DNA of 64,000 nt from Shigella phage vB_SboS_Gloob: the sequence record OL615011, one strand, 5' to 3'. The position numbers and the translations under genes were made by a program. Shown here piece by piece: positions 4,403 through 16,427 of this stretch; the first letter of the stretch is position 1, and each line of letters begins with the position of its first letter. Below the pieces are notes generated by a model. The model was given only the letters and a program-made list of their open reading frames with translations. It did no database searches and was not told the DNA's origin.

Positions 4403-4708
4403 ATGTTAACCACTGATGTCTACTTCAAATATGCGCGACAGACGTATGGCTCGCATCGTGTGACAGACAAATTCTTGATAGACTCCTTCCAGTTTGAAGG
4501 GGAGATGAGGGAATACTCACACAAACAATTCCCACCCCGTGAAGTTCATGGTGACCAGTTCGTGAAATTGTTCTGTCGCTGCGGCGGTTGTGACTTCACA
4601 GATGATGGGTATGCAATGCACGTATACTGCTGCAATTGCTGTGGTAAATACATAACAGTCTATAGGAGAACCAATCATGGCGAAGAAACCCGAAACCAAG
4701 AAAGTTGA
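4403..4708 (+). CDS. hypothetical Cys-rich protein
   Basis: 101-aa ORF with CRCGGC...CCNCCG cysteine cluster; overlaps next gene start. Confidence 0.4.
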   Translation: MLTTDVYFKYARQTYGSHRVTDKFLIDSFQFEGEMREYSHKQFPPREVHGDQFVKLFCRCGGCDFTDDGYAMHVYCCNCCGKYITVYRRTNHGEETRNQES

Positions 4709-5102
4709 AACCGCAACTACAGCCCCCGTTGATGACATCCAGGCGAAGGAGGAAGGTGTGTTACCCACCTACCTGCAACGCGCTGTGGACAACATGCCTA
4801 CAGGCGGGGATGGAGGCGTCGTCTACGCTGGCGGGTACGGTTGGGTGTGCGAATACCGAGACGGCACCAAAGAACTCCTTCAGGAGCTTCCAGGGCTGGC
4901 GTCCACGCTGAAGCGTTATGGTCGCGACAAGTATGGCAAGCCGTTTGAGAAGGGCGCTGTCGTCTCCACCAACATTACAGCAGATACTCTGAACCTTCTG
5001 GGTGTGGACGACCTGAAGCTGCTGGCTGAACCTTTGGGTATCACAGTAGAAGATCGCATTACGTTGATTGCTCAACTGATCGAAAAATTGCAGATTAAAT
5101 AA
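4677..5102 (+). CDS. hypothetical protein
   Basis: 141-aa ORF preceded by AGGAGA ribosome-binding site. Confidence 0.6.
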   Translation: MAKKPETKKVETATTAPVDDIQAKEEGVLPTYLQRAVDNMPTGGDGGVVYAGGYGWVCEYRDGTKELLQELPGLASTLKRYGRDKYGKPFEKGAVVSTNITADTLNLLGVDDLKLLAEPLGITVEDRITLIAQLIEKLQIK

Positions 5103-12288: not shown

Positions 12289-12576
12289 ATGTTCTATCTC
12301 CGTTCTGCGGCACCTGTGGTATTCATCATTTTCCTATTTGATTTCCTGGTTCCTCGCTTTATCAAAGAAGAGGTGGCGTTTGGTCTCTATGGTGAGACGG
12401 AAGACCCAGAGGTCGATGAATATTACCCAATGTGCGCCCTGAAAGATATCGAGGAGGGGGAAGATGTTGCAATGGTCGGCACCATGCGTTCTTTCAACCT
12501 GTTTGGGCTTGCACTCTTTCCGAAACTGGTTGGTGAATTGCGCCCCTACGATCCTGATGCTACTGTAGAGGGTTGA
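12289..12576 (+). CDS. hypothetical protein
   Basis: 95-aa ORF, hydrophobic N-terminus. Confidence 0.45.
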   Translation: MFYLRSAAPVVFIIFLFDFLVPRFIKEEVAFGLYGETEDPEVDEYYPMCALKDIEEGEDVAMVGTMRSFNLFGLALFPKLVGELRPYDPDATVEG

Positions 12577-12578
12577 CC

Positions 12579-12890
12579 ATGTCACAGCTTCTGAGTCCTA
12601 AACTTCTGTCTATGGGTGATTCCCTGTATTTTCACTGCCCTGGATGTGGTATGCTTCACCCATATCGCGTAAAGGGTGATGCCCAAGGTCCGATGTGGTC
12701 GTGGAACAACAATGTTGTTGAGCCTACGTTCACGCCGAGCCTGCTGGTGAATGCATCTGATCCAGCATCACGTTGCCATCTGTTCCTGACCGACGGCAAA
12801 ATACAATTCCTCGGCGACTGTTTCCATGATCTGAAGAACCAGACAGTGGATATGGTCGACATCCCTGAACCTGAAATTTGGATTGAATAG
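12579..12890 (+). CDS. hypothetical zinc-binding protein
   Basis: GAGGG RBS; HCPGCG ... C ... CFHD cysteine/histidine pattern. Confidence 0.5.
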   Translation: MSQLLSPKLLSMGDSLYFHCPGCGMLHPYRVKGDAQGPMWSWNNNVVEPTFTPSLLVNASDPASRCHLFLTDGKIQFLGDCFHDLKNQTVDMVDIPEPEIWIE

Positions 12891-12893
12891 ATT

Positions 12894-13304
12894 ATGAAAT
12901 TACTCGGTTATTTTCGCGAACTCCCAACGGGCACTGAAGGCAAGTTGTTCTCACAGGTGAAAGGGAATGACATCGGTGATACGATGGTTCCTCTGTACAC
13001 CCGTGACCTTCCTGCCGAAGGTGCCTGGGAGCGCCGTGTGGTCGCTGCCGCCAACAAATATGGTGATGTGATTGTCGTTGCCGACCGTCACCATAGCAAA
13101 TTCATGAACAGTCAGCTCAAGATCCTGAAAGAGGCTGGTGTGATTAAATCCACCCATACCCGTGAACAGGGCTTTATCGACAATCAGGGCAACTTCCTCA
13201 CTCGTGAAGAGGCTTGCGTCGTAGCCCGTGAAGCCGGACAAATCAATCAAGTGCGCCTGAAGACAACCCCATTCCGTGAACTCTTTTCCGAAGACCTCTA
13301 TTGA
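12894..13304 (+). CDS. hypothetical protein
   Basis: 136-aa ORF starting 4 nt after upstream stop. Confidence 0.55.
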   Translation: MKLLGYFRELPTGTEGKLFSQVKGNDIGDTMVPLYTRDLPAEGAWERRVVAAANKYGDVIVVADRHHSKFMNSQLKILKEAGVIKSTHTREQGFIDNQGNFLTREEACVVAREAGQINQVRLKTTPFRELFSEDLY

Positions 13305-13309
13305 AGAAA

Positions 13310-13331
13310 AAGGCGGTATTATTACCGCCTT
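13310..13331. terminator. hairpin, possible terminator
   Basis: aaggcggtattattaccgcctt inverted repeat. Confidence 0.45.
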
Positions 13332-13354: not shown

Positions 13355-13597
13355 ATGAACCCAGAATTTGAAAACCTGTTTGAGCGTTGCTTCGAGCCTG
13401 CGTCTGTTGCGGGTTACATGGACCGCCTCAGTAAAGAGATCATTGTCCGTCTGGCGGCGAAGGGTATCCATGTTGGTACGCTCGTGCGCAACGGTGACAA
13501 CTTCATCATACAGATGTCCGACTGTCGTCATCGTTCTGGCATCTTCTACGTTAAATGCATTGACAACAGCATTATTGAATGGAGACAGTACGCATGA
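13355..13597 (+). CDS. hypothetical protein
   Basis: 80-aa ORF; stop overlaps next start (ATGA). Confidence 0.5.
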   Translation: MNPEFENLFERCFEPASVAGYMDRLSKEIIVRLAAKGIHVGTLVRNGDNFIIQMSDCRHRSGIFYVKCIDNSIIEWRQYA

Positions 13598-14193
13598 CCA
13601 CATATGTAATCAACGGCGGTGATTTACTGAAAGCCGCCTGTAGTTTCAACCTGATCGACATCTTCGCCCATGGTGCCAACTGCTGGTCTACCATGGGTGC
13701 GGGTATTGCTCTGCATATCGGCAACATCTTCCCCGCCCTGCGTGAAGCCGATGCGAACGACCCTCGTGGTCCAGAGCAACGCCTGGGTGGCATGTCCTAT
13801 GCATTTGACCACAGCAAGGGCGTTTGGGGTGCGAACCTCTACACTCAGTTTTATCCAGGTCCGAATGCCCGCATGCCGTCTGTCATCAGTTCTGTTCAGA
13901 CCCTGTTTGAGCAGGTTCACGAAATTGTGGAAGCAACTAAAGACGAAACTGTCTATGTCGGCCTGCCTGCTATCGGCTGTGGTATTGGTGGTCTGAACCT
14001 CTACAGCGTAGTGCGCCATATTAACCGGATCGCTGAAAGCGTGTATGAAGAGACCCGCCGTCGTGTCGTCCCAGTCTTCTATATCAGGGAAGGAGACGGA
14101 TTCGATGATGACATGATGGAACTTTCTCATCTGGACGCAGAAGGTATCATGATTGTCAAAGATGAGCAAGAAATCATCGACGAGGAGGCGTGA
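13594..14193 (+). CDS. macro domain protein (ADP-ribose binding/hydrolase fold)
   Basis: INGGDLLKA...DIFAHGANCWSTMGAGIALHI matches macro-domain N-terminal signature; later GIGG motif. Confidence 0.65.
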   Translation: MTTYVINGGDLLKAACSFNLIDIFAHGANCWSTMGAGIALHIGNIFPALREADANDPRGPEQRLGGMSYAFDHSKGVWGANLYTQFYPGPNARMPSVISSVQTLFEQVHEIVEATKDETVYVGLPAIGCGIGGLNLYSVVRHINRIAESVYEETRRRVVPVFYIREGDGFDDDMMELSHLDAEGIMIVKDEQEIIDEEA

Positions 14194-14825
14194 TGTACAA
14201 GTCTAATTTCTTGGCTGTGGCTGATAGCGAGACTCTGGGGCGCTGGGATGATGCTGTGATGTTATCCTGGGCACAGACTATCGCTGATCTGACAAAGCGT
14301 TATACTCTTCAGCAGCTGGTTGAGGAGCGCACGACGTTCATCAAGCTGAATGTCAAAGAGCAGATCGAACTCGGTCGCGTGAAGGACCAGGGGACGGTAG
14401 AATGGTGGTTGGGGACGGGTAAACGTAACCCGTGTGATGCGGCTCGCGCCGTCAGTCTGTACCCGACTGAGCAGGACATCTCTATCTTCCAATTGGCAGA
14501 CGAAATCCGCAAGGGTTGTCATCGTCTTGGGGTAGACCCGCGCTCGGTTGACTGGTGTGACCGTAACTTGTTCGATCTGCGCAAGGCTCAGCACACCATT
14601 GAGGTGACGTGTAAGCAGGACTCCAACGAGCCATGGGATTACCACCACACCTTCGACATCGTGAGCTGGCTGAAGGGTGTCGGGCAACAGGATCGCTACG
14701 CTGGCATCAAGGCGTGGGAACTGGAAGGCATGGTCTATCATGATCCTCGTTATGACGCCGCGCTTGATTGGCTTCGCATTCAAAAGACTATGGAAGACCT
14801 GATGGGTCTGGAGGTGGTAGGATGA
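14190..14825 (+). CDS. dexA: DexA-like 3'-5' exonuclease (DEDD family)
   Basis: Exo I motif AVADSETLG; TVEWWLG and C-terminal region resemble T4 exonuclease A as recalled. Confidence 0.7.
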   Translation: MMYKSNFLAVADSETLGRWDDAVMLSWAQTIADLTKRYTLQQLVEERTTFIKLNVKEQIELGRVKDQGTVEWWLGTGKRNPCDAARAVSLYPTEQDISIFQLADEIRKGCHRLGVDPRSVDWCDRNLFDLRKAQHTIEVTCKQDSNEPWDYHHTFDIVSWLKGVGQQDRYAGIKAWELEGMVYHDPRYDAALDWLRIQKTMEDLMGLEVVG

Positions 14826-15127
14826 GCGCATTCTTCGAATTCGTCGGCGTCATAACAGTGACAGTATTCCTCGTGGTGACGTTGGGAGTTCTGTACTCCC
14901 TGTTTGTTCATCCAGCGTTCCAGGCCATCAGTATCATGCGCTGGATAACAGCTTGCTCCTTGTCGGTGGGTAACAAGCCGCCGACTCTGAAAGAGAGATG
15001 GAGTTTCTTCAAATGGGGATATGAAATCGGTGGTCCCAGAACAACCCGCTACTCTAACAACACCGGAGAATGGTGTGGGATAGGCCGATGGCAAGTATTC
15101 AAATCTGAAGAAGATGAAGCCCCGTGA
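14822..15127 (+). CDS. small membrane protein
   Basis: GGAGG RBS; TM helix VGVITVTVFLVVTLGVLYSLFV. Confidence 0.5.
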   Translation: MSAFFEFVGVITVTVFLVVTLGVLYSLFVHPAFQAISIMRWITACSLSVGNKPPTLKERWSFFKWGYEIGGPRTTRYSNNTGEWCGIGRWQVFKSEEDEAP

Positions 15128-15140
15128 GGGGCTTTTCTAT
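15118..15140 (+). terminator. rho-independent terminator
   Basis: gcccc-gtga-ggggc hairpin then TTTTCT; stop codon lies in the loop. Confidence 0.55.
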
Positions 15141-15169: not shown

Positions 15170-15403
15170 ATGAATCCTCGGGAAACTGCTATGACTACAG
15201 CAAGAAGTTACAGAAAGAACTTCAACATCGAAGGGATTGAGTTCTACCACCATTACGCCCAGGACACCCATGGCACTGTATGCAACACATACATGCTTGA
15301 CGGTCGCCCTGTAGGTTCCGATGAGTTCTATCGTGTTTTGCGCGAGTCTACAGAAGAATCCCTGTCTTACATTATCAATGCCAACGGATTGATTAAACCA
15401 TGA
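15170..15403 (+). CDS. hypothetical protein
   Basis: 77-aa ORF; start uncertain. Confidence 0.4.
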   Translation: MNPRETAMTTARSYRKNFNIEGIEFYHHYAQDTHGTVCNTYMLDGRPVGSDEFYRVLRESTEESLSYIINANGLIKP

Positions 15404-16086
15404 TCAACGTATCAATAAACGACCGAGATTTCGTCCACGCTGTTATGACAAACAACAAAGACCCTCTTGCGTACAACGGGGAGAAGGTTACTCTGTTCTG
15501 GTCAGGCGGCGTGGACAGCACGTACATGCTATTCTGGCTGTTGGCTCACGGGTACGAAGTTCACACGATCTACTGCGAACTGGAGAACAACTCCTTCAAG
15601 GTGAAGCGTGAGAACTGGTCGCGCAAGAAGATCAGGGAATGGGTGACCACAAATTCGCCGAGGTTGAACACTCATTGGCATCACAGAGAAACCCCGATCA
15701 GCAAAATGAGCATCCAGTCTGGTGAGTTCCGGCCTTGTCTGGCTCAAGCCCCTGTGTGGTTGGTGAACACCCAATTCGCGGGTGGCCATTTTGATCGAGG
15801 ACTGCCAAGAACTTATGTGATGGCATACGTCAACGGAGACGACGCTCTACACTGGATCCCTGCCTTCAACAAGATCGTGGAGGGTTATAACATGTTGGCC
15901 AAAGACGGGCATGAGATCACCGTTCTCTTCCCTCTCGCCAGCATGAAGAAGACATGGTTCTACGAAGCCTTGTCGCCAATCTACGGGCTGATGACCTGGT
16001 GTGAATATCTCGTTCTGAAAAAGAACTGTGAATGCCCCGCTTGTGTCCGCCACCGTCATGAACTTTCCGTGTTTGAGGGGAAATAA
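15400..16086 (+). CDS. QueC-like PP-loop ATPase (7-cyano-7-deazaguanine synthase family)
   Basis: PP-loop SGGVDS with flanking LFWSGGVDSTYML...GYEVHTIY; C-terminal C-x8-C-x-C-x2-C-x-R cluster like the QueC zinc site. Confidence 0.65.
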   Translation: MINVSINDRDFVHAVMTNNKDPLAYNGEKVTLFWSGGVDSTYMLFWLLAHGYEVHTIYCELENNSFKVKRENWSRKKIREWVTTNSPRLNTHWHHRETPISKMSIQSGEFRPCLAQAPVWLVNTQFAGGHFDRGLPRTYVMAYVNGDDALHWIPAFNKIVEGYNMLAKDGHEITVLFPLASMKKTWFYEALSPIYGLMTWCEYLVLKKNCECPACVRHRHELSVFEGK

Positions 16087-16427
16087 TGAAACCGTCTGTT
16101 GTGGTGAACGACATCACTATGTTGATAAACCTCGTCAAGGATGTGTTTCCACAACAGGTGGATGTCGAGTATGTTGGGAAGAACGGGAAGTGCTATCAGG
16201 TTGCTCTGTTGTTGAAGCACGTGTACCCTCAAGCAGAGATCCATTACAGTCAGATTGAAGGTCATGTGTACACTCTGATTGATGGGAACTATTACGACAT
16301 CGACGGCATCCAATTCAGTGTCCCACCGGACACGTGTTTGCTCGAACACAATAGAGGCCACAAACCACATCGCTGGCATAAAGGATTTGTGAACGTACCG
16401 ATTTTAGAATGGTTGAGGAGACCATAA
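16086..16427 (+). CDS. hypothetical protein
   Basis: GAGGGG RBS; TAATG overlap with upstream stop. Confidence 0.55.

Follow-up and report, generated by a model that had tools for sequence, protein, structure and literature searches.

A Tk.4/AdfM-like macrodomain gene with a glutamine-type active-site signature in Shigella phage vB_SboS_Gloob, predicted to encode a DNA (thymidine) ADP-ribosylglycohydrolase

The gene block and its junctions

The window analysed here is a stretch of 64,000 nucleotides from Shigella phage vB_SboS_Gloob (sequence record OL615011), which covers the left portion of an Agtrevirus genome (Ackermannviridae). Over 2.7 kb around the macrodomain gene, it shares 95.9% identity with Shigella phage Ag3 (phiSboM-AG3) and 96.5% with Salmonella phage SW16-7, in both cases at nearly the same coordinates. 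The features of the locus, in positions of the window, are as follows.

13310–13331, + strand: GC-rich hairpin AAGGCGGTATTATTACCGCCTT, preceded by the Arn.3-like gene and followed by the four-gene block
13355–13597, + strand: 80-aa ORF, DUF7234 (1.2e-42) / PHROG 5593
13594–14193, + strand: macrodomain gene, 199 aa, homologue of T4 Tk.4/AdfM
13612–13635, + strand: NGGDLLKA, aa 7–14, beta1-loop segment, aligning with the G-N8-L9-L of Thermus aquaticus DarG that contacts ADP-ribose
13669–13710, + strand: HGANCWSTMGAGIA, aa 26–39, ADP-ribose-binding loop 1, in which N29 aligns with DarG N22
13834–13866, + strand: NLYTQFYPGPN, aa 81–91, family signature (Q85 codon at 13846–13848)
13975–13992, + strand: GCGIGG, aa 128–133, Gly-rich phosphate-binding loop 2, aligning with DarG G117-A-G119-N120-G121-G
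14041–14190, + strand: C-terminal region, aa 150–199, with 16 Asp/Glu and 5 Lys/Arg, comprising the last core strand plus the extension
14182–14188, + strand: Shine-Dalgarno sequence GAGGAGG of the DexA-like gene, within the 3' end of the macrodomain gene
14193–14825, + strand: DexA-like DEDDh 3'-5' exonuclease gene, 210 aa
14822–15127, + strand: 101-aa ORF, PHROG 2531, closing the tightly packed block
15117–15134, + strand: hairpin AAGCCCCGTGAGGGGCTT, then TTCTAT, terminator-like, at the end of the block

The four overlapping genes, namely those for the DUF7234 protein, the macrodomain protein, the DexA-like protein and the 101-aa protein, whose Ag3 counterpart is annotated as a membrane protein, probably share one transcript. 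The DUF7234 stop overlaps the macrodomain start as ATGA, and the macrodomain stop TGA (14191–14193) has one base, the A at 14193, in common with the dexA ATG (TGATG); both overlaps had been pointed out in the preliminary description and both are present in the sequence. The dexA stop likewise overlaps the ATG at 14822 as ATGA. The macrodomain ATG at 13594 has GGAG 9 nt upstream, and the in-frame ATG at 13579, which is chosen as the start in some records, has none.

Two GC-rich hairpins (13310–13331 and 15117–15134) flank the block. The first was reported on the minus strand by the scan, its stem being palindromic, and is possibly a terminator or an RNA-stability element; together the two may delimit a small transcription unit, as terminators or RNA-processing sites.

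Several neighbouring genes were also observed. The homologue of T4 Arn.3 at 12894–13304 matches PHROG 839 at 1.4e-50 and is called a "tRNA processing enzyme" in some records, and neither Pfam nor NCBIfam gave support for this gene. Before it, 12573–12890 encodes 105 aa that match DUF6527 (2.6e-14) and contain a CxxC...zinc-ribbon-like motif; relatives of this protein are misannotated as "anaerobic dehydrogenase", and a "Lar family" gene stands at the matching place in phage Guerrero. At 15400–16427, a gene for a 228-aa QueC-like PP-loop ATPase (PHROG 1550 at 3.6e-73; Pfam QueC over the N-terminal part only, 1.8e-6) is overlapped by a YunG-like gene downstream of it (113 aa; PF24591 at 7e-43). 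This pair is missing at this position in Ag3 and is present in ChubbyThor and in the Kuttervirus Guerrero (as "alpha hydrolase"); the QueC-like gene could encode a lone 7-deazaguanine-pathway-like enzyme or have another nucleotide- or DNA-modification function.

Macrodomain fold and active site

The product of 13594–14193 belongs to the DarG/TARG1/Poa1p ("ALC1-like") subclass of macrodomains. It is too divergent for the Pfam Macro model (PF01661), which it matches at 16.3 bits against a gathering cut-off of 22, and precomputed PF01661 matches are present for shorter and more distant relatives. The macrodomain call therefore rests on PHROG, profile and structure evidence. The protein matches PHROG 335 at 8.6e-63, the NCBIfam DarG model (NF048014) at 1.8e-8 over model positions 6–137 of 338 (34.1 bits against a curated cut-off of 250), and the PADLOC DarG model at 2.2e-7. 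A single-sequence search of the PDB was marginal (DarG, E = 0.027), so a profile of 65 homologues was needed (alignment A1, built from 80 database homologues); with it, DarG was found at 2.8e-16, TARG1 at 1.3e-13, SCO6735 at 3.3e-12 and Poa1p at 2.2e-10. The AlphaFold2 model computed from the same alignment, a structure prediction of the kind proposed in the preliminary description, is confident over the whole chain (mean pLDDT 96.6, pTM 0.93) and has the three-layer alpha/beta/alpha macro fold, and Foldseek placed it closest in the PDB to TARG1 (3.4e-10), Poa1p (4e-9) and the DarG macrodomains (about 2e-8). The earlier identification of a macro-domain protein, which had been made from motifs now located at aa 7–14 and 26–39, thus agrees with the fold, profile and PHROG matches.

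The Tk.4/AdfM family, the concept of an orphan antitoxin and the annotation of this gene are all already known. Ag3 carries the ORF as "Tk.4 protein", followed by "DexA exonuclease", and ChubbyThor as "putative ADP-ribose binding protein", while in other records it is mostly a "hypothetical protein" or a "phosphatase". By tblastn, relatives were found in 2,625 of 50,697 phage records, the Tk.4 loci of T4-like phages among them. T4 Tk.4 itself, taken from the T4 genome, belongs to the same PHROG 335 and gave a BLASTP match of 34% identity over 115 aa (2e-16); this identity is limited, and members of one macrodomain family can differ in substrate specificity. The two proteins have AHGxNCxxTMGxG, NLYTQFxPGPN and PxIGxGIG in common, the second with Gln at the catalytic-lysine position.

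The ADP-ribose-binding loops are intact. In T. aquaticus DarG, ADP-ribose is contacted by N22 and by the G117–G121 loop (PMC5179494); besides N29, the G35-A-G37 of loop 1 aligns with DarG G28/G30. In loop 2, G128, G130, G132 and G133 are all retained, with almost no variation across the 65 homologues, so the macrodomain call withstands a check named in the preliminary description, namely a loss of the Gly-rich loop on careful alignment. H26, G27, N29, C30, G37, N81, Q85, G89 and P125 are invariant in the 65 aligned homologues, and T84 is nearly so.

Among these, Q85 stands where DarG (K80) and TARG1 (K84) have the catalytic lysine, and T4 Tk.4 also has Gln there. K80 is the key catalytic residue of T. 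aquaticus DarG and is equivalent to TARG1 K84 (PMC5179494). T84-Q85 was aligned to the Thr-Lys of DarG, TARG1 and PhiKZ gp104 by HMM, in the independent MAFFT alignment A2 and through a bridging homologue, a family member that matches Mycobacterium tuberculosis DarG at 2e-18. A Lys-to-Gln replacement is known from the Streptomyces coelicolor protein SCO6735 (PDB 5E3B), a chromosomal ALC1/TARG1-like macrodomain of the Gln type in which Gln85 occupies the place of the DarG/TARG1 catalytic lysine (PMC9411070); Q85 of the phage protein corresponds to it by transitivity via DarG K80 and TARG1 K84, rather than by a direct alignment. SCO6735 (5e3b) came seventh in the PDB search with the bridging homologue. 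Its loop 1 has H24/N27 at the places of H26/N29, and its K34 and K89, which have been probed by mutagenesis, correspond by offset from aligned residues to A36 and G89 here. An additional structural element has also been reported for the SCO6735 subclass.

SCO6735 is a proven hydrolase of ADP-ribosylated thymidine in DNA. It removes thymidine-linked ADP-ribose with a higher efficiency than DarG or TARG1, it protects cells from DarT, and its Q85A/E replacements are inactive; the proposed mechanism is water-mediated, with Gln positioning the substrate (PMC9411070). Since Gln is thus known as an alternative active site for the very reaction predicted here, Q85 is not evidence of inactivity. The invariant Gln-for-Lys would tie the T4 Tk.4 clade to an SCO6735-type, and not a DarG-type, mechanism, which offers a hypothesis for a large phage family.

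Loop 1 also resembles Poa1p, an ADP-ribose-1''-phosphate phosphatase, in its His-x-x-Asn-Cys motif, and this common motif accounts for the "phosphatase" label of the family. Of the catalytic residues of Poa1p, H23 is matched by the invariant H26. The equivalent of S30, aa 33, is Thr here and T, V, I, S, A, M or L in the family.

The DexA-like neighbour

The downstream ORF, which the preliminary description had also named correctly, is a genuine DexA homologue with predicted exonuclease activity. It matches PHROG 255 at 7.9e-53, T4 DexA with 25% identity over the full length (5e-10) and the T4 DexA crystal-structure chain 8kel (PDB 8KEL) at 1.3e-4, and the DEDDh residues are kept as D11-x-E13 (Exo I), D128 (Exo II) and H183-x4-D188 (Exo III).

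The gene order was surveyed in 79 IMG/VR loci that encode a family member, 19 of the Ackermannviridae type and 60 others. The order Arn.3-like gene, macrodomain gene, dexA is found in all 19 Ackermannviridae-type loci, with DUF7234 between the Arn.3-like and macrodomain genes in 18. The dexA gene abuts the macrodomain gene in four of the 19, and 250–460 nt are inserted between them in the other 15. In the three cases examined (a P46FS4-like locus, a Kuttervirus locus and the GenBank record of phage Guerrero), the insert is an ORF of 114–127 aa, which overlaps both the macrodomain gene and dexA in the P46FS4-like and Kuttervirus loci and is arranged in the same way in Guerrero; at the equivalent of the window junction 14193, it lies at 4597–4980 in locus L025 and at 4603–4947 in locus L011. 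Because this ORF is present in close relatives and missing in the window and in Ag3, the junction appears as an indel hot spot. Among the 60 other loci, dexA was not found within 4 kb of the family member in any, and the Felixounavirus and Krischvirus arrangements around the homologue are likewise unrelated to the macrodomain–dexA order. T4 has tk.4 flanked by vs and tk, with dexA not adjacent but about 52 kb away.

It could be supposed that the macrodomain protein and DexA are a dedicated pair, in which, for instance, de-ADP-ribosylation is coupled to exonucleolytic processing of damaged single-stranded DNA and the overlap sets the stoichiometry. The base common to stop and start (TGATG) and the constant order in the 19 loci would agree with such a pair, but the dexA start has a strong Shine-Dalgarno sequence of its own, and overlaps are common in these genomes: in the first 50 kb of the Ag3 annotation, 29 of 70 same-strand junctions overlap, 11 of them by 4 nt and another eight by a single nucleotide. 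The insert that separates the genes in most related loci and in the Guerrero record, and the distance of dexA in T4 and in the other phage loci, also speak against it. We consider the pair very unlikely, and a macrodomain–DexA functional module was rejected on comparative grounds (junction counts, inserts and distant loci). The translational coupling claimed in the preliminary description is thus physically real as an overlap but uninformative as to function, given the 29/70 overlaps and the inserts in 15/19 loci. That the two genes adjoin is a matter of synteny at the level of the family, within an early region where genes are densely packed, and is no evidence for a functional pair.

Across the Ackermannviridae-type loci (L009–L027), identity is 91–99% for DexA, 69–90% for the macrodomain protein and 33–98% for the DUF7234 protein. 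The macrodomain and DUF7234 proteins diverge much faster than DexA, so evolutionary rates differ sharply within one block; the divergence of the macrodomain protein relative to DexA is what an accessory gene subject to different selection would be expected to show.

Predicted role against DarT2-type toxins

Phage relatives with a tested function point to defence against DarTG2. T4 Tk.4 is the anti-DarT factor Macrodomain (AdfM) of the Straboviridae and, like the Gloob protein, is a stand-alone phage macrodomain encoded in an early/accessory region; the contexts differ, being vs-tk.4-tk in T4 and Arn.3-like, DUF7234, macrodomain, dexA in Gloob, and the anti-DarTG2 phenotype is that of T4 only. 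In a saturated T4 transposon library on a DarTG2-expressing host, tk.4 was the single significant hit, and a clean tk.4 knockout was DarTG2-sensitive, on which grounds the gene was named adfM (2025 preprint). This evidence is genetic, and DNA de-ADP-ribosylation by Tk.4 was inferred by the authors, who wrote that it "seems likely" (2025 preprint). PhiKZ gp104 (also AdfM), the DarG2-like orphan macrodomain with which this chimallivirus counters DarTG2, was shown in vitro to clear a TNTC oligonucleotide of the ADP-ribose added by DarT2, and it rescues cells from DarT2 toxicity. It is 27% identical to the Gloob protein (8e-7) and belongs to a clade other than the Tk.4 type, with a DarG-type FPTK lysine motif and import into the phage nucleus. 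The DarG2 macrodomains of T. aquaticus and M. tuberculosis (PDB 5M31, 5M3E, 5M3I) differ in having Lys80 where the phage protein has Gln, and also in a C-terminal DarT-binding domain and an adjacent darT; the Gloob protein, which ends at aa 199 among phage-gene neighbours, has neither.

Taken from sequence and homology, the most probable reading, which we favour with reasonable confidence, is that the gene encodes a Tk.4/AdfM orphan antitoxin with a Gln-type site that would reverse DarT2-type thymidine ADP-ribosylation of phage DNA. During infection, a host DarT2-type toxin would put ADP-ribose on thymidine in single-stranded phage DNA, and the macrodomain protein would strip it off again, which may restore replication and packaging and so neutralise a DarTG2-type defence. 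Catalysis would proceed as in SCO6735, with the glutamine positioning the substrate and an activated water doing the chemistry, and not by the lysine mechanism of DarG and TARG1.

Of the candidate roles listed in the preliminary description, the reversal of host toxin-type ADP-ribosylation is borne out by the Tk.4 homology and the active-site signature, whereas the reversal of Alt/Mod-type modification and the clearance of NAD-derived signals found no support. There is a small but appreciable chance that the protein is instead a general hydrolase of ADP-ribose derivatives, of the Poa1p or O-acetyl-ADP-ribose deacetylase type, acting on ADP-ribose-1''-phosphate or OAADPr in nucleotide housekeeping. 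The "phosphatase" label of the databases implies such a small-molecule activity, but these labels are transferred annotations and not tests; the His-x-x-Asn-Cys motif is common to Poa1p, but aa 33, at the place of S30, is variable in the family, and the family profile favours DarG (2.8e-16) over Poa1p (2.2e-10). Moreover, DarTG2 sensitivity is the sole phenotype known in the family, and no nearby tRNA 2'-phosphotransferase pathway was identified as a source of Appr-1''-p.

A target in protein or RNA, modified by another host ADP-ribosyltransferase (e.g., a CmdT-like enzyme acting on mRNA) or by the phage's own Alt/Mod-type enzymes, appears unlikely. Apart from DarG, the nearest relatives that have been characterised are TARG1 and SCO6735, and both also cleave protein-linked ADP-ribose (PMC9411070); TARG1-like enzymes are active on uracil-ADPr in RNA, and T4 has Tk.4 along with ModA and ModB. 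Against this stand the activity of DarG itself, which is on DNA only, and the specificity of the T4 tk.4 screen hit for DarTG2; in addition, tblastn, a weak test for such sequences, found nothing like ModA or ModB in the 64-kb window (best E 0.69) or in Ag3 1–50 kb. The clearance or sequestration of NAD-derived immune signals, such as the cyclic ADP-ribose isomers of Thoeris-type systems, is exceedingly unlikely: such a phenotype was not met with for family members in the literature examined, and the nearest structures and sequence models are all of the DarG/TARG1/SCO6735/Poa1p subclass, well above ThsA, for which reason this role was rejected as a leading idea.

The orphan-antitoxin reading leaves the C-terminal region of the protein to be considered. 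T4 Tk.4 has 155 aa, whereas the 199 aa of the Gloob protein include a C-terminal extension that is structured and acidic, and T4-type proteins in general have 145–160 aa, as against mostly 177–206 aa in the Ackermannviridae-type clade (P0001–P0037). The extra 40–55 residues are found in this clade only, T4 Tk.4 being without them, and have no counterpart in any characterised homologue. In the AlphaFold2 model, aa 150–199 are confidently folded into a strand (158–164), a helix (171–177), a strand (185–188) and a helix (191–198), and a motif, RRRVVPVFYI...F...L...I.VV..E.EII..E, shows moderate conservation in the clade. The Erwinia phage phiEa2809 and Serratia phage phiMAM1 proteins have BFVD models that superpose along the whole chain (TM 0.78–0.85). 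In DarG, the C-terminal domain directly binds and inhibits DarT by DNA mimicry. It is conceivable, with rather low probability, that the acidic extension confers a second action, whether DarT inhibition by DNA mimicry, docking to the replisome or SSB, or a role with hypermodified-thymidine adducts; if so, the protein would be a new, two-function variant of an orphan antitoxin.

If the predicted anti-DarTG2 role is true, Agtrevirus and Kuttervirus phages, which are therapy and biocontrol candidates against Shigella, Salmonella and E. coli, would have a built-in counter to DarTG2-type abortive infection, and relatives recorded as "hypothetical protein" or "phosphatase" could be re-annotated as AdfM-like. 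Hypermodified thymidine has been reported in the Ackermannviridae, and whether it serves as a DarT2 substrate or not bears on the role of the macrodomain in these phages. In ViI-like phages, a cluster of dUTPase plus thymidylate synthase genes is linked to thymidine hypermodification. In the window, genes annotated as dUTPase and "putative thymidylate synthase" likewise form a cluster, at about 35.7–38.6 kb (Ag3 orf00063–orf00067).
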